Positions 8,957 through 20,935 of a stretch of 64,000 nucleotides of DNA are shown piece by piece; within the stretch, counting starts at the first letter, position 1, and every line of letters begins with the position of its first letter. Under the pieces are notes generated by a model. That model searched no databases and had not been told where the DNA came from. It saw only the letters and a list, made by a program, of their open reading frames with translations. The position numbers and the translations under genes were made by a program. The stretch is from Patescibacteria group bacterium (lineage in GTDB: Bacteria > Patescibacteriota > Minisyncoccia > 2-02-FULL-40-12 > GWA2-44-9). The stretch covers positions 5,147 through 69,146 of the forward strand of contig JBBTTB010000006.1 of assembly GCA_038064455.1 (NCBI GenBank). Reading direction: 5' to 3'.

Positions 8957-9448
8957 ATGCCTCCAAAGAAACGAAATCGCACTGGGAAGCGGAAAAAGAA
9001 AGCACGCACGCCAAAACGTGTGGTGCGTCCGCGCGTGGTGATGCCCGGCCCAACCTATGTGGTGAATAAAGAATTCGCGTTCTTTAACGAACTGCATTCA
9101 CTTATTTTAAAACCATCTCCTGCAGAGCGCGGCGAGTTGATGCGCCGCATTGCGTCACTTGGTCGCGTGAAGCTCGCGGTTATCTCCGGAGTCTTTTTAA
9201 ATACACCAGATCAAACAGCGCTCATTGATACGAACGCACCAACCGACTTGTTTTTAGTAGCAGATGATTATAGTAAACAAAAACTCTCTGCATTTTTGAA
9301 AGCCCTTGAATCAGAAGTAGGCAAGGAAATAAAGTTTGGTATCATGGATAGGGAAGAGTTTATGTATCGTTTTGGCATGTTCGATCGCTTCGTGCGCGTG
9401 CTCCTTGAGGGGCCCCACGAGAAGTTGATTAACAAGCTTGGCATTTAG
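8957..9448 (+). CDS. Hypothetical protein with a strongly basic N-terminus (KKRNRTGKRKKKARTPKR) and a possible minimal nucleotidyltransferase-like core.
   Basis: ORF. Basic tail plus ..LAVISGVFLN..DLFLVADD.. (weak similarity to the NTase fold). Its stop overlaps the tRNA 5' end by 1 nt. Confidence 0.4.
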   Translation: MPPKKRNRTGKRKKKARTPKRVVRPRVVMPGPTYVVNKEFAFFNELHSLILKPSPAERGELMRRIASLGRVKLAVISGVFLNTPDQTALIDTNAPTDLFLVADDYSKQKLSAFLKALESEVGKEIKFGIMDREEFMYRFGMFDRFVRVLLEGPHEKLINKLGI

Positions 9449-9521
9449 GGCGCATAGCTCAGCTGGTTAGAGCGTTGCATTCACATTGCAAAGGTCCCTG
9501 GTTCGAGTCCAGGTGCGCCCA
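9448..9521 (+). tRNA. tRNA-Val (anticodon CAC).
   Basis: Folded by hand. Acceptor GGGCGCA/TGCGCCC. D-arm GCTCAGCTGGTTAGAGC. Anticodon stem TTGCA/TGCAA with loop TTCACAT. T-arm CCTGG-TTCGAGT-CCAGG. Discriminator A. No encoded CCA. Confidence 0.8.
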
Positions 9522-9962
9522 CTAAATAGGGCACGCGACAGCCGCTTCCGGTTGTTGCGTGCCCTGATTGCTGCATACGCGCCTGGCTCGAACGCCGGAG
9601 CGATGTGTTGCCAGCTGGCAACACCGCGAGGCGGTGGTCAGTTTACCCGCCCGCCAGTTAGGTGGGCGGGCCCGAGCCCCGACGACTGGTCGGGGCGAGA
9701 GGCGAGACCGAGTCCAGGTGCGCCCACTAAATAGGGCACGCGACAGCCGCTTCCGGTTGTTGCGTGCCCTGATTGCTGCATACGCGCCTGGCTCGAACGC
9801 CGGAGCGATGTGTTGCCAGCTGGCAACACCGCGAGGCGGTGGTCAGTTTACCCGCCCGCCAGTTAGGTGGGCGGGCCCGAGCCCCGACGACTGGTCGGGG
9901 CGAGAGGCGAGACCGAGTCCAGGTGCGCCCACTAAATAGGGCACGCGACAGCCGCTTCCGGT
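9504..9962 (+). repeat. Tandem direct repeat with a 205-bp period, 2.2 copies. Each unit begins with the last 18 nt of tRNA-Val (cgagtccaggtgcgccca).
   Basis: Copy 1 at 9504-9708 (shares the tRNA 3' end), copy 2 at 9709-9913, copy 3 partial at 9914 to about 9962. Copies 1 and 2 are essentially identical. Units are rich in hairpins. Confidence 0.85.
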
Positions 9963-9984
9963 TGCTGCATGCTCCGATTATTGT

Positions 9985-10013
9985 TTGACGTGCGTGAAAT
10001 AACGGCGTATACC
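9985..10013 (+). promoter_or_regulatory. Sigma70-like promoter of island gene A: TTGACG-N17-TATACC.
   Basis: -35 at 9985-9990 and -10 at 10008-10013. The module is conserved upstream of paralog B. Confidence 0.5.
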
Positions 10014-10102
10014 TATGCTGTTCGTTGCGTTCTTTCTCAACACAACATCGGCGGGCTCTACGGAGTTGACCGGTGGCTTAAAGGCTGTGGCTTTTAAGAA
10101 AT

Positions 10103-10864
10103 GTGGTACGACGATACCGCATAGGTGTTACGATGCCTCTCAAGCAAGAGATGCTGGAAGCTGCTCCCAGGGCCGCCTCGTGGCTCGCGGAGCGATGCCT
10201 CAACACGCTGTCTCCGACAGACCGAAGGGCGGTTTTCGATGACGTGGTGCAAGAGGCGATGAACCGTAGCGATGGCGACTCCGCGTCGGCCCTCTTAGAG
10301 CTCGAGCTTCGTTACTTGGATTCTGGCGCGCTCGATCGGGTACCCACGCCAGAGACCGTGGAGGAGCAGTGTTGGGTGCGCTACCTTCTCATCGAGCATC
10401 GCTTCTTGCGCGTGGTGGAGGCTAGGTGCCTGCGTCCCAGCAGTATGGAGCCATTTGCCAACTACAAGCTGTTCGTCTGCAAAGAGGTGGCAGAGTGCTG
10501 GACGCCGACGCTTCATGGGCCCCGTGAGTTGCGGGCTTTCCGCCTTTTGGCGGCAATGGGGTGGTGTGACTCGCCAGAATATCTCGAAGCTTTTTGGGAG
10601 CGCGTTGGCGCATCTATGCCACCGTGGGCGCGCGCGATGTACGCGACTACGAGGGCGGAACAGAATAAGTTCATCGCGATCCTCCGTGAGCGCCTGGATC
10701 GGTTTCCGCGAACCGAGCCGCAGGATCCCGAGGCCGCTTTCTTGTACTGGCTTTCCTTGCCACGTGTACCTGCCGACTTGAGACGCTTGCTCGCCATGGC
10801 GTATGCGAGGATAGTCGGCCCCGACGCGATCATGCGCGGTATGATGCAGCAGCCGCGTAGCTAA
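10103..10864 (+). CDS. Hypothetical protein, island paralog A (GC-rich).
   Basis: 253-aa ORF, with an alternative start at 10133. No known motif. Homologous to the next gene (..RAFRLLAAMGW.. / ..FLYWLSLPRVPADLRRLLAMA..). Confidence 0.5.
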   Translation: MVRRYRIGVTMPLKQEMLEAAPRAASWLAERCLNTLSPTDRRAVFDDVVQEAMNRSDGDSASALLELELRYLDSGALDRVPTPETVEEQCWVRYLLIEHRFLRVVEARCLRPSSMEPFANYKLFVCKEVAECWTPTLHGPRELRAFRLLAAMGWCDSPEYLEAFWERVGASMPPWARAMYATTRAEQNKFIAILRERLDRFPRTEPQDPEAAFLYWLSLPRVPADLRRLLAMAYARIVGPDAIMRGMMQQPRS

Positions 10865-10875
10865 AGCGCCAAACC

Positions 10876-10910
10876 AGCGGCCCCGGACCTGTCCCGAGGC
10901 CGCTTTTTTA
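10876..10910 (+). terminator. Rho-independent terminator after paralog A.
   Basis: gcggcc..ggccgc stem followed by TTTTTT. Confidence 0.7.
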
Positions 10911-10935
10911 TGTGCCTTTTATTCAACATATCTGA

Positions 10936-10964
10936 TTGACGCAAGTAAAATAATGGCGTATATC
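10936..10964 (+). promoter_or_regulatory. Sigma70-like promoter of island gene B: TTGACG-N17-TATATC.
   Basis: -35 at 10936-10941 and -10 at 10959-10964. About 60 bp is similar to the module upstream of paralog A, including a conserved gttgcgt just downstream. Confidence 0.5.
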
Positions 10965-11052
10965 TATAGCTATTTGTTGCGTCCCTTAACAACTTTCGCT
11001 GCTGGGCCCTTAGGGGCTGATCGGCGACTCGGAAGCTACGGCCGACGAGCCT

Positions 11053-12261
11053 GTGCGACACGACGTTGTCGCGTGGAGCACCACTATGGCGCTCAAGATC
11101 GAATTCTGGACATCGGCGGAGGAAATTCTCCGAATGTTGCCGTCAGTATCCGCAGCCATGGCCATGAAGTGGCTTGCGGCGCCCTCGGAAGATCAGGAAT
11201 CCTTCTTGGACGAAATCGTGATGACGGCCGCTCGGCGCTATGACGACGAGCAGACGTTTGCGCTCACCAACCTCATGTGTGCAGTGATCACTGAGCGGGA
11301 AGTTGCTGTCGCCAGAGACGGGACGGGCAACCGCTTCGAGAAGGAAAACGCTGCAAAGGCCGTCGCCGTTGAAAAGGCGCTGAAGTATCTCGACGATCTC
11401 TTCTGGCGCCTACCAGACTCTCGTGTTCAGCTCGACTATGAAACGCGCAAACCATACAACACGGCAGCGCTCACGGGAACGAAAGCGTTCATCTTCAAGC
11501 GTCTTCTGACGCAGTGGAAGTTGGCGGTGCCATCCGAGGTAAGCATCCGTGCGTTTCGTCGCGCGATCGCCATGGGGTGGCCACTCCCCGCGGAGACGAA
11601 GACCCTGCCTGGCGAAAGCGACATCGAACTGAAGGTTCGTGGGCGTTGGGTATCGGCAGATGAGCGCAAGCAGTATCTGACCACCCTACGCGAATGTCTG
11701 GGGGGTTTGACGTCGGATGACCCGGATAGCCTGTTCTCCCACTGGTTCTCACTCCAGGCGGTTCCCTCTGACATCCGGGACCTGCTTGCCATCGCGCGGA
11801 CGAGGCTGGGTGGCCACCACCTGGCATCGCGTGACGTGGTGCGTGCGGGGATGCTCAACGGCTTGCCGCAGTCGGGGGTAGAGGTGGTCGCCGCCTTGGC
11901 TGTTCGTATGCGCCTGGCCGTGGAGGGGTTGACGCGTGTCAAGGAGCTCATCGCCAAGAGTATCCCAGCACCCCACATCCACCAGAGCTACTTCCAACGA
12001 GAGAGAATCATCGCAGAAGGAGTCGAGCGTGCGGTTAAGTACGCTTTCAATTTCTCTCCCGAAACCGTGACGCTGCAAATGACTGTCATGGTGCCGGACG
12101 AGATGTACGGTTCCAACATGTACTACCCCACCGTCGACGCCATCGAGAAGGTACAGTGTAAGGGCAATCTCCTCGACATCGCAATCATGCTGCGCTTTTA
12201 CGATCCGAACGCTCGCGATCGTATCGTGAAGGAGTGCAGCATCGAGGCGGCCCCGCGCTAG
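11053..12261 (+). CDS. Hypothetical protein, island paralog B (GC-rich).
   Basis: 402-aa ORF, with an alternative start at 11086. The central and C-terminal region is homologous to paralog A (..RAFRRAIAMGW.., ..FSHWFSLQAVPSDIRDLLAIA..). Weak hairpin terminator at about 12262-12305. Confidence 0.5.
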   Translation: MRHDVVAWSTTMALKIEFWTSAEEILRMLPSVSAAMAMKWLAAPSEDQESFLDEIVMTAARRYDDEQTFALTNLMCAVITEREVAVARDGTGNRFEKENAAKAVAVEKALKYLDDLFWRLPDSRVQLDYETRKPYNTAALTGTKAFIFKRLLTQWKLAVPSEVSIRAFRRAIAMGWPLPAETKTLPGESDIELKVRGRWVSADERKQYLTTLRECLGGLTSDDPDSLFSHWFSLQAVPSDIRDLLAIARTRLGGHHLASRDVVRAGMLNGLPQSGVEVVAALAVRMRLAVEGLTRVKELIAKSIPAPHIHQSYFQRERIIAEGVERAVKYAFNFSPETVTLQMTVMVPDEMYGSNMYYPTVDAIEKVQCKGNLLDIAIMLRFYDPNARDRIVKECSIEAAPR

Positions 12262-12446
12262 CGGGCAACCCCGACGGTCTCGAGAAGCAATTCTCGGGGC
12301 CGTTTTCTTATCAATTTACTCTTTTCGATGCATGGTGCGAGTGAAATGCTCGCGCAAAGTCCCCAGCTCGGCTGGTGGGGCTCCTGCACACCCCGCGACC
12401 ATTCGTTGTTCACGAAGATCGTGGGGTGTTTTACTTATGCACATTT

Positions 12447-12480
12447 CCGCTGTTGCGCGCATGCTCGGTGGGGTATACTG
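12447..12480 (+). promoter_or_regulatory. Candidate promoter of the mraZ operon: TTGCGC ... TATACT.
   Basis: ttgcgcgcatgctcggtggggtatactgac about 45 nt upstream of mraZ. Confidence 0.35.
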
Positions 12481-12525
12481 ACTAGGTAGTGGTTGTAAGT
12501 GGGAAGAAGTGTTACATCGCAAACC

Positions 12526-12960
12526 ATGCTTATTGGCGAATACCAACACACGATTGATGCCAAGAAGCGTCTTGCGATTCCTTCAAAATTTCGCCGTGAG
12601 CTTGGTGAGCGCGCCGTTGTGACTCGAGGAGTAGACGCATGTTTGTTTGTCTTTCCTCTCCAGCACTGGGAAGTGCTCGCAGAGCGCATTGCAAATCTGC
12701 CCGTTACACAGGGGGATAGTCGGTCGTTTGCACGATTGATGCTCTCCGGCGCTACAGAAGTCGAATTTGATTCCCTCGGTCGCGTACTCATTCCCGATCA
12801 TCTCAAGAGTTACGCAGGATTGAACCGTTCAGTCGTTGTTGCGGGACTCTATAAGCGATTGGAAATCTGGGATGCCGCCGCATGGGAGCGTACCAAGCAA
12901 GAGCTTGAGAAGAATTCCGACCGTATTGCAGAGAAGCTTGGTGAATTAGGAGGCATTTAA
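12526..12960 (+). CDS. mraZ: Transcriptional regulator MraZ.
   Basis: MLIGEYQHTIDAKKRLAIPSKFRREL.. duplicated MraZ/SpoVT-AbrB fold. First gene of the division and cell-wall cluster. The ORF track start at 12499 is probably too long. Confidence 0.85.
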   Translation: MLIGEYQHTIDAKKRLAIPSKFRRELGERAVVTRGVDACLFVFPLQHWEVLAERIANLPVTQGDSRSFARLMLSGATEVEFDSLGRVLIPDHLKSYAGLNRSVVVAGLYKRLEIWDAAAWERTKQELEKNSDRIAEKLGELGGI

Positions 12961-19177: not shown

Positions 19178-20569
19178 TTAGAACGTTGCGGGGCCGTCGT
19201 AGTTATGCTGACGGTCTACCTCATAGAATTGTAAACTATCTGGGTCAATATAGAAATCAATGTCGCCGGTAGGGCCGTTACGATGCTTTGCAATAATGAG
19301 TTGCGCCATGTTGAGTTTATTTTCTTGCTGGGCCTTGGAGAAATTTACTTTGTCATCGCGGTGAATGAACATGACCACGTCTGCATCTTGTTCAATAGAG
19401 CCGGAGTCGCGCAAGTCAGAGAGCTTCGGGCGATGGCCGTCGCGGCTTTCAATAGCGCGCGAGAGCTGGGAGAGTGCGATAACGGGGATATTTAACTCCT
19501 TCGCAAGTCCCTTGAGCCCCCGAGAGATTTCAGTGACTTGTTGTACAGCGCTATCGTAATCTTTGCGACCCGCCATGAGCTGGAGATAATCAACGACCAC
19601 CGCGCCAAGATTGTGTTCAGCATGGAGGCGACGGGCGACAGCACGCATTTGAAGCACATTCATACTCGCGCTGTCATCGATAAATACGGGCGTAGTTTTC
19701 AGTTCACTAATAGCAGTGGTGATGCGGAGAAAGTCGTTATCTGCGCCATCGTGAGAGAGGCGTCCGGTGCGGAGCTTCCAGAGTGAAACACCAGACTTTG
19801 ATGCAATAAAACGATCAACCACTTGATCTGTGGACATTTCCAAACTAAAGATGGCAACGGGTGTTCCGTTCGCCGCAAGTCGTCCCGCAATATCGATAGA
19901 GAATGCCGTTTTACCTACCGAAGGGCGCGCGGCAATAATGACGAGGTCAGAGCGTTGGAATCCTCCGAGCATTTCATCTAACTTCGTGTGTCGCGTAGGG
20001 AGTCCGCGCAGTTCGCCAGTGTCCTGCGTGCTGATGCGCTCCATCGCGGCATCCAAACTACTGGCAAGCGCTGTAAAGTTTTGTGGGCGAGACTTCTCGC
20101 CGATGGCAAACAATTTACGCTCGGCTTCGTCGAGAAGCGTTTCGGTATCCTCGTCTTCGCGGTAGCCAAGGCCAATGATCTCATGAGCTACATCAATAAG
20201 ATTACGCAGGGTGCGCTTCTTCTGAAGAATGCGTCCATACGTAGAGGCGTGCGCGGCGGAAGGAACTGCGCTTGCGAGTGATGTAAGAAATCCAACGCCG
20301 CCGATGTCTGCAAGCACGCCTCGTTCTGCGAGTACGTTGGAGACACTTAGTACATCGATAGCGTCGCGCTTTTCAAACAAAGAAATCACCGCCTCATAGA
20401 TGTGCTGGTGGTTGCGATGGTAAAAATCTTCAGGACGCAGAAAGTCAACAACGCGGTTGATGGCTTCTCGATCAATTAAAAGAGCCCCTAACAGCGTCTT
20501 CTCTGCGTCGGTGCTATGCGGAGGTGTCTGTGTGGGGACTTGTGGTGCGCTTCCTGCCATGGAGCTCAT
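19178..20569 (-). CDS. dnaB: Replicative DNA helicase DnaB.
   Basis: DnaB N-terminal domain (LLIDREAINRVVDFLRPEDFY..HQHIYEA), Walker A ARPSVGKTAFSIDIA and the RecA-like core. There is no intein. Confidence 0.9.
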   Translation of the reverse strand: MSSMAGSAPQVPTQTPPHSTDAEKTLLGALLIDREAINRVVDFLRPEDFYHRNHQHIYEAVISLFEKRDAIDVLSVSNVLAERGVLADIGGVGFLTSLASAVPSAAHASTYGRILQKKRTLRNLIDVAHEIIGLGYREDEDTETLLDEAERKLFAIGEKSRPQNFTALASSLDAAMERISTQDTGELRGLPTRHTKLDEMLGGFQRSDLVIIAARPSVGKTAFSIDIAGRLAANGTPVAIFSLEMSTDQVVDRFIASKSGVSLWKLRTGRLSHDGADNDFLRITTAISELKTTPVFIDDSASMNVLQMRAVARRLHAEHNLGAVVVDYLQLMAGRKDYDSAVQQVTEISRGLKGLAKELNIPVIALSQLSRAIESRDGHRPKLSDLRDSGSIEQDADVVMFIHRDDKVNFSKAQQENKLNMAQLIIAKHRNGPTGDIDFYIDPDSLQFYEVDRQHNYDGPATF

Positions 20570-20635
20570 TATTCATCTTCTATACGTGTGCGCAACTCTT
20601 TCTGTGGAGAGTGTGTGGATGTCTCCGTGATTCTT

Positions 20636-20664
20636 TTGACCTGCATAGAAAAAAGGTGTATAGT
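20636..20664 (+). promoter_or_regulatory. Near-consensus sigma70 promoter TTGACC-N17-TATAGT.
   Basis: -35 at 20636-20641 and -10 at 20659-20664. It drives the small ORF at 20703. Confidence 0.6.
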
Positions 20665-20702
20665 ACTATCTTCACGACGCATGCTTCACTAAGGAGGAAT
20701 GC

Positions 20703-20876
20703 ATGTCTAAGTCCCAGCCGTCCACCAAGGAGGGGCCCGAGCTCATCAACTACATGGGGACCTATTACAGGGTGGCCGGCTTCTTCCGCCGAAAGGGAGA
20801 GAAGTTCGTGACATTCTGTGGCGAGAGTGGGATCGAGCGGAGCGTGCCGCTCGCGAAGGTCTCCGTGATCGCCTGA
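20703..20876 (+). CDS. Small hypothetical protein (57 aa), GC-rich.
   Basis: AAGGAGG RBS 6 nt upstream. Consensus promoter upstream. Followed by hairpins (GGGGGT..ACCCCC) and a T-rich tract. Confidence 0.4.
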   Translation: MSKSQPSTKEGPELINYMGTYYRVAGFFRRKGEKFVTFCGESGIERSVPLAKVSVIA

Positions 20877-20897
20877 TCGCTAGAGAGCATCTCTCTG

Positions 20898-20935
20898 GCG
20901 AGGGGGGGTGGCAATGTTGCGCTACCCCCTTATTT
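20898..20935. terminator. Bidirectional terminator-like hairpin between the small ORF and the convergent cysS.
   Basis: gggggtggcaatgttgcgctaccccc followed by ttatttatttg. Confidence 0.5.

Follow-up and report, generated by a model that had tools for sequence, protein, structure and literature searches.

Two transcription units next to a tRNA-Val gene

The 64-kb stretch of Patescibacteria DNA analysed here, which comes from Hainich groundwater and is referred to as the window, contains between positions 9985 and 12313 two monocistronic units on the forward strand, each of which consists of a promoter, a leader of about 115 nt, a coding sequence, and a terminator. The two genes, designated A and B, encode diverged members of an orphan protein family, and each is preceded by a leader RNA with three hairpins. 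Upstream lies a tRNA-Val(CAC) gene (9448-9522, identified by ARAGORN and with an Rfam tRNA score of 71.5 bits), whose last 19 nt open an adjacent tandem repeat (9504-9979, 2.3 copies of a 205-nt unit, forward strand); the repeat is treated here as context for the gene units. The mraZ, rsmH, and ftsI genes come after the terminator of the second unit.

The first unit starts with a promoter-like module (TTGACG-N17-TATACC, 9985-10013), which begins 5 nt past the end of the last partial repeat copy. It continues with the single-stranded 5' start of the leader (10020-10045), which holds the box GTTCGTTGCGT with a CGTT core that recurs in orthologues, the three-hairpin leader RNA (10046-10135), gene A (10133-10864), which encodes a short paralogue of 243 amino acids (aa) with the N-terminal helical region only, and an intrinsic terminator (10876-10909) read from the sequence as AGCGGCC...GGCCGCT followed by TTTTTT. 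The second unit comprises a promoter-like module assigned by the same pattern count (TTGACG-N17-TATATC, 10936-10964), a single-stranded 5' start with the box ATTTGTTGCGT, recognized by comparing the upstream regions of A and B (10972-10995), the three-hairpin leader RNA (10996-11088), gene B, which encodes a full-length family member of 391 aa (11086-12261), and an intrinsic terminator (12273-12313), for which the terminator scan gave a stem of 14 pairs at 12273-12304 and the T-run to about 12313 was read from the sequence. Both leaders were assigned by single-sequence folds, covariation, and the covariance models R1 and R3, and both proteins were matched by a hidden Markov model (HMM) of the family (E 1e-46 for A and 9e-80 for B). 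The initial annotation of this segment had given each gene its own terminator, and both terminators do have a hairpin plus a T-run; they are alike (family D4 in a repeat-family comparison), and that of gene A escaped the terminator scan, whose loop limit was 8 nt, due to its longer loop. The same annotation had placed a conserved TTGACG-N17-TATAYC module before each gene, a pattern that has exactly two matches in the window versus 0.00 expected from shuffles, and a -10-like hexamer could also be read from the sequence at a comparable distance upstream of the hairpins at orthologous loci. The motif GTTGCGT, which had been added to this module as conserved, is unremarkable alone (17 occurrences in the window versus 11.6 expected).

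The open reading frames (ORFs) of 253 and 402 aa described initially exist as maximal GTG-started frames (10103-10864 and 11053-12261, respectively), but the GTG codons of both fall within leader hairpins, and the true starts are likely ATG 10133 and ATG 11086, giving proteins of 243 and 391 aa. The former start was chosen because the public NCBI record of A (P0003) has 243 aa, the latter because the N-terminus MALKIEFW of B aligns with MALKIESW of the orthologue P0002, and both because a Shine-Dalgarno (SD) sequence is present 5 to 8 nt upstream of the ATG (AGGTG before ATG 10133 and GGAG before ATG 11086). Therefore, the 5' untranslated regions (5'UTRs) are about 115 nt long and not about 85 nt as had been estimated. 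The public annotation of gene B (P0001) starts at 11164, 26 codons late as judged by where the leader and SD lie and by the alignment of orthologues, and thus records a protein of 365 aa instead of 391 aa.

Genes A and B are true paralogues that have diverged. Their proteins align over about 255 residues with 24% identity (BLASTP E 1e-12), and both of the sequence blocks on which paralogy had first been proposed were aligned. When the two units were compared along their length, identity was about 80% in the 70 bp that begin shortly upstream of the -35 box and end at the first hairpin, 54% in the structured part of the leader, 42.6% in the coding DNA, and 27.9% in the proteins. Leader A is closer to leader B (54%) than to the leader of any orthologue (31-44%), which fits a duplication of the whole unit. 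Protein A aligns only with the first ~260 residues of B and is without the last 130-150 residues, including a C-terminal alpha/beta domain; it retains the invariant W, F, W, P, and G positions of the family, and complete short forms are found elsewhere as free-standing genes (for instance P0012, 259 aa). By neighbour joining, B falls together with P0004, P0005, and P0002, and A lies on a long branch. The initial view that a whole cassette had been duplicated and had then diverged holds insofar as promoter, leader, coding sequence, and terminator are all alike; it does not hold for the C-terminal domain, which A does not have, nor as a sufficient account of the leader likeness, which is not a mere relic of duplication.

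An orphan protein family of Patescibacteria

The family to which A and B belong was revealed by exhaustive profile search alone. Word-indexed searches returned 2, 1, and 3 matches, and among 5.8 billion proteins they found only A and B themselves and one relative (P0002, 32% identity), whereas the exhaustive profile search of 1.84 billion cluster representatives detected 83 proteins at E<=1e-3, 39 of them at E<=1e-10, most of which are 340-400 aa long. Peptide-pattern scans of genome and metagenome contigs found only the already known Saccharibacteria locus, and the wide alignment A4 was too divergent to serve as a seed for a contig scan. The members share the motifs LYWxLPD, an invariant Trp, AFR(R/F)xIA, ESxxE-x-ARGR, W-x6-P, and ARAxxGGxxLAxRDIRN, and their invariant residues include W144 and W220. 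Where the source was named or could be placed, which was the case for few proteins, it was a genome or metagenome of Patescibacteria, also known as the candidate phyla radiation (CPR), with the names 'Patescibacteria group bacterium', 'Candidatus Saccharibacteria' (a metagenome-assembled genome), or 'Candidatus Parcubacteria', and the product was always annotated as hypothetical. This is an orphan family of soluble, mostly helical proteins that has so far been seen only in Patescibacteria.

No known domain had been recognized in A or B from the sequence, and this was borne out. The best Pfam match of A and B had an E value of 0.27, and the best PHROGs match (E 0.0025) was to a family without an assigned function; furthermore, the 54 family members scanned had no Pfam match in common, the 12 members scanned against NCBIfam and PADLOC gave no meaningful match, and a profile search of the PDB sequences gave none. 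A structure prediction had been suggested as a check in the initial annotation. The AlphaFold model of B, built with a 54-sequence alignment, is confident (predicted local distance difference test score, pLDDT, 91.1; predicted template modelling score, pTM, 0.83), whereas an earlier run with a 3-sequence alignment was unusable (pLDDT 51). In the model, a long helical N-terminal region (approximately residues 1-292) is followed by an alpha/beta domain of about 90 residues at the C-terminus (approximately residues 300-391). It matched no solved fold in the PDB by Foldseek (best E 0.02, template modelling score 0.14), and the comparison with BFVD, which contains viral predicted folds, gave no meaningful match either. 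Homology to a common housekeeping family or a lack of conservation had been named as observations that would speak against genes of this kind; no housekeeping homology was detected, and the family is conserved, with 83 representatives.

A conserved three-hairpin leader and the position of the family genes

The leaders of A and B were compared with those of seven loci of the close subfamily (L001, L006, L015, L016, L017, L018, and L019). When folded singly, all nine leaders formed three consecutive hairpins, and in seven leaders all three were in the same register; three individual hairpins were in an alternative register. Hairpin 1 is built of two stems, one outer and one inner; hairpins 2 and 3 comprise 8-9 and 4-8 pairs, respectively, and in every one of the nine leaders the distance from the end of hairpin 3 to the SD is 0-8 nt. 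UACG accounts for 17 of the 27 hairpin loops; the loops are UACG, UGUG, and CGACGA in leader A and UUAG, UACG, and CGACGU in leader B. Conservation is confined to the tetraloops and stems, with no invariant unpaired nucleotides outside the loops.

In the alignment A7 of these leaders, 96.6% of 237 pair cells are standard pairs, compared with 67% after shuffling, and two-sided (compensatory) changes occur in 26 of 30 pairs, a number reached by none of 500 shuffles. As a control, sliding the partners by 1-3 columns reduced pairing to 36-45%. When the seven orthologues alone were realigned with Infernal, 96.9% of cells were paired and double changes were found in 21 of 30 pairs, again reached by 0 of 500 shuffles. 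G-U pairs make up about 16% of the paired cells of A7 by a hand count, and therefore the structure works only on the mRNA strand. The covariance model R1 matched only ten sites in 132 kb, all of them upstream of genes, with a score of 29.5 bits for leader A. In order to leave A and B out, a model was first built from an N-padded alignment (R2), which was handicapped by the padding, and was superseded by R3, built from a properly gapped alignment. Single-sequence fold z-scores of the leaders were modest (-1.6 to -2.0). Rfam 15 contained nothing at E<=1 for either leader in the interval 9300-12600, and no Rfam match was found on the leaders of six orthologous loci. The orthologues that share this leader architecture are only 25-35% identical in protein sequence. 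Judged by this comparative evidence, the shared leader is a conserved RNA structure, which appears with the same architecture before orthologues in at least seven other genomes.

Several additional pairings were considered. Single folds suggested that the 5' box GTTCGTTG pairs with the SD/AUG region in a closing helix; this helix was rejected, as native 5' regions hid the SD no better than shuffled ones in 8 leaders, and no pairing role was found for the 5' single-stranded region of the leader. A terminator-type U-tract was not present after any hairpin in the leaders compared. In gene A, the SD and start codon (10123-10138) can pair as AGGUGU-UACG-AUGCCU, a possible fourth UACG-capped hairpin, and an analogous AGGCA...UGCCU pairing is possible at the equivalent place in L006 and L015; all three genes begin with Met-Pro. 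In addition, the interval from terminator B to the mraZ promoter contains an orphan 9-bp hairpin followed by GTTTTAC (12390-12434). With ATTCGTTGTTCAC (12401-12413), the loop of this hairpin carries a sequence similar to the leader 5' box (GTTCGTTG, or GTTCGTTCAC in L017); this could be a remnant or a chance occurrence.

In relatives, the family gene is single-copy and mostly occupies a fixed position. The dnaB gene is located upstream of it in L001, L006, L016, L017, and L019, with products 60-68% identical to DnaB of the window, and cysS is located downstream in L001, L006, L015, L017, and L019, so that both flanks are seen in four loci. Whether homologues are always associated with tRNA genes or islands had been raised as a question in the initial annotation; the dnaB-cysS slot is the usual site, and adjacency to a tRNA gene was found here and in L015. 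In the window, dnaB and cysS are adjacent, and the slot between them (20561-20933) contains only a 57-aa ORF (20703-20876), which has its own promoter-like site and SD and is unrelated to the family. A remnant of a family copy in this slot or elsewhere in the window was sought with the family HMM on six-frame ORFs, and only A and B were recovered.

The composition of the pair is also distinct. The two genes had been described initially as GC-rich, and this segment is the most GC-rich of the window: the islet has 59.8% GC compared with 51.3% for the window, and when the 64 kb are ranked in 1-kb windows by GC content, the top five all fall within 9523-12310. The third codon positions of A and B have GC contents (GC3) of 0.717 and 0.730, respectively, versus a window median of 0.485. 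In contrast, the family gene matches the composition of its host in 6 of 8 other loci compared. The nearest relatives of B, P0004 and P0005, come from genomes of 58-60% GC. The foreign composition and the lack of a family gene in the dnaB-cysS slot point to a horizontal acquisition, and the A/B pair was thus probably acquired from elsewhere and the resident dnaB-cysS copy lost. A phage or viral origin was considered and rejected: the family protein had no relatives in IMG/VR viral contigs, two segments of the 205-nt repeat had no exact match there, and PHROGs and BFVD gave no meaningful match.

Two other loci also showed features of this type. In L015, the family gene is located beside tRNA-Glu(CTC) and directly downstream of a GIY-YIG endonuclease gene (111-498), and a copy of the tRNA 5' end is duplicated (~131-143 versus 423 onwards); the GIY-YIG gene looks like a homing-endonuclease insertion. 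In L020, a distant family member (1381-2448) has a GC3 of 0.52 versus 0.30-0.34 for its neighbours, which include nucleotidyltransferase/HepT-like and AbiEii toxin-antitoxin genes; here too, the family may have moved horizontally.

Each 205-nt unit of the repeat next to tRNA-Val consists of the tRNA-Val 3' end and four GC-rich hairpins, some with G-U pairs, and folds at -130 kcal/mol (z -9.3); the repeat had no Rfam match. At 94% identity, the final, incomplete copy (9914-9979) shows the divergence that would be expected of a displaced original tRNA end. The number of copies differs between assemblies: L004, a second NCBI assembly, represents the same genome and agrees at 100% identity across 21 kb, and it has 1.3 copies versus 2.3. 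No repeat copy was found near 12262-12498. The sequence TTGTTGCGTNCC is present in the 3' arm of the first hairpin of the repeat (9552-9563 and 9757-9768) and in the 5' box of module B (10974-10985); as a sign of kinship between repeat and module it was rejected, because 3 matches versus 1.6 expected, with one mismatch allowed, is not significant. The heptamer CTGATTG, which had been taken as a hint of cassette-like acquisition, does occur at 9564, 9769, and 10932, yet only 5 times in the window versus 10.5 expected.

Interpretation and comparison with known systems

The explanation that we favour, with a probability of roughly 0.6, is that a conserved control leader is tied to this orphan family and that the whole unit was duplicated and then transferred. 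The leader would be a cis-acting element of post-transcriptional control, in which a factor bound to the hairpins would occlude the ribosome-binding site. Occlusion is favoured because the leader stays with the gene at every location, has conserved loop sequences, and reaches the ribosome-binding site with its last hairpin; gene and leader are found together at dnaB-cysS, beside tRNA-Val in the window, and beside tRNA-Glu in L015. The preferred candidate for the bound factor is the encoded protein itself, which would possibly bind its own leader as a feedback operator. As one would look for in a feedback leader, a structured and conserved leader adjoins the ribosome-binding site and is co-inherited with the gene, and the hairpins were found only upstream of family genes. 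Under such feedback, A and B would share one regulatory circuit. As to the origin of the pair, the whole transcription unit may have been duplicated in a donor of higher GC content, and the pair may then have moved horizontally into the tRNA-Val/mraZ intergenic region of a genome in which the ancestral dnaB-cysS copy is absent.

A number of observations weigh against this explanation. As for the RNA, A7 was made by hand around the proposed structure and contains only nine leaders, and R3, which was built without A and B, finds both leaders in the right place with weak scores (14.4 bits, E 0.26, rank 3 in the window for A; 11.6 bits, E 1, rank 5 for B). Distant members (L008 and L020) did not match the leader model, and a GC hairpin shortly ahead of the SD is all that they have in common with the close subfamily. 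In the predicted folds, pairing covers just part of the SD, and the transcription starts were taken from -10-like hexamers only. As for the protein as the bound factor, the family is mildly acidic (median isoelectric point 6.4), no recognizable RNA-binding domain was found in the Pfam scan of its members, and such indirect data on RNA binding, charge and domain content, give no support. As for transfer, Pfam detected no integrase or recombinase within 10 kb on either side, the right border of the islet is undefined, and all three copies of the tRNA-end repeat are located within 9504-9979, to the left of both genes, where they bracket only a 139-nt spacer. Furthermore, the two assemblies that agree with each other may rest on the same reads.

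The main rival to a bound factor is a pure stabilizer role, in which the hairpins are real and no operator is involved: they would protect the mRNA from decay at its 5' end, or serve as a module for processing or folding. Among small hairpins, GC-rich stems capped by UNCG-type tetraloops have the highest thermodynamic stability, and such exceptional stability, together with the lack of invariant unpaired nucleotides outside the loops and of an RNA-binding signature in the protein, would be in line with this role. However, protective 5' hairpins are normally located within a few nucleotides of the 5' end, whereas here hairpin 1 comes after 13-30 nt of single strand (counted from the inferred 5' end), and the retention of UACG in 17 of 27 loops and the fixed place of the last hairpin beside the SD suggest recognition over bulk stability. 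We regard a stabilizer as rather unlikely. A metabolite riboswitch or an RNA thermometer would likewise take the form of a conserved and structured 5'UTR that immediately precedes the ribosome-binding site, and the small SD-to-AUG hairpin that is possible in A, L006, and L015 could be read in this way. But the hairpins are independent, with no multi-helix junction and no conserved internal-loop nucleotides, the 5' region sequesters the SD no better than its own shuffles and shows no evidence of alternative pairing, no hairpin is followed by a U-tract of the terminator type, and no riboswitch in Rfam was matched, so that such a role has the least to recommend it of all the alternatives and is hardly to be expected.

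Other alternatives concern the origin of the units. In a plain recent tandem duplication, the upstream likeness would be functionless leftover identity and A a decaying copy. The leader and promoter of A are indeed closest to those of B (54% over the structured region and ~80% over the promoter region), the terminators are alike, and A is truncated and lies on a long branch. However, a promoter identity of ~80% next to a coding DNA identity of 42.6% is a gap beyond neutral decay, orthologues of other genomes have the three hairpins too, with compensatory changes, A retains the invariant residues of the family, and complete short forms such as P0012 (259 aa) are free-standing elsewhere; we consider simple duplication improbable. 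It is very improbable that the units are mobile gene cassettes, integron-like or part of a tRNA-targeting element, gained successively with the tRNA-end repeats as attachment sites. The units do adjoin tRNA-Val, the 3' end of which recurs in 66-nt direct repeats, the composition of the units is foreign, and family genes occur at varied sites (dnaB-cysS, tRNA-Glu with GIY-YIG in L015, and a toxin-antitoxin-rich patch of deviant GC in L020). Nevertheless, there is no integrase or recombinase within 10 kb on either side, the repeats are all on the left side of the genes and enclose 139 nt only, neither gene is followed by a repeat or an attC-like imperfect palindrome, a promoter belongs to each unit, which is not the case in integron cassettes, CTGATTG does not exceed chance, and viral contigs gave no matches.

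The favoured explanation, a control leader tied to the family and transferred with it, can be extended to a more specific model, which we put forward tentatively and think doubtful in its full form. The three UACG hairpins and the protein would constitute one RNA-protein module specific to Patescibacteria, in which the protein recognizes its own mRNA and that of its paralogue, A modulates or competes with B, and the unit moves as a whole between genomes. If true, this would explain both the differing locations of the unit and the foreign composition here and in L020.

Patescibacteria represent a large share of bacterial diversity, and much of their small genomes codes for proteins without an assigned function; to our knowledge, few cis-regulatory RNAs have been described for them, and our literature search gave no pertinent paper. 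Both the orphan protein family and the leader motif described here are new, in that they are in none of the curated protein or RNA families tested. The locus thus offers a cleanly definable protein family with a confident structure prediction and no known fold, together with a compact RNA motif that is absent from Rfam, shows clear compensatory changes, and is physically tied to the family. It also represents a natural case of two diverged copies, one full-length and one with the N-terminal domain only, under the same type of leader, and a small transcription unit that has apparently replaced its resident counterpart via horizontal transfer. These provide concrete experimental handles on an orphan CPR function.

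When compared with known systems, the location resembles a minimal tRNA-linked islet. As in tRNA-linked genomic islands, the islet is directly 3' of a tRNA gene, has direct repeats of the tRNA 3' end and a strongly deviant composition, and carries genes that are located elsewhere in relatives; unlike such islands, it is only ~2.8 kb long, with no integrase within 10 kb, repeats that do not flank the genes, and no defined right border. With integron cassettes it shares compact single-gene units in tandem and in the same orientation, but each unit has its own promoter and terminator, only terminator hairpins and no attC follow A and B, no intI is present within 10 kb, and the orthologues occupy a fixed chromosomal slot. 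In the ompA-type 5'UTR, a 5' stem-loop stabilizes the mRNA. Very stable hairpins in an untranslated leader are common to both systems, whereas here the first hairpin is 13-30 nt from the inferred 5' end, and there are three hairpins, with conserved loops, fixed beside the SD.

In autogenous leaders, such as ribosomal-protein leaders and the thrS operator of E. coli, hairpins in the 5'UTR abut the SD, are co-inherited with the gene, and show compensatory changes. The family described here differs from these systems in that its protein is neither a ribosomal protein nor a synthetase and is mildly acidic, and in that its leader matches no Rfam leader; we also know of no cellular RNA that the leader might mimic. 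On the other hand, the hairpins abut the SD, the leader is inherited with the gene, compensatory changes are evident, and the paralogues could share one operator type. By analogy, therefore, this arrangement would work most like an autoregulated mRNA leader.

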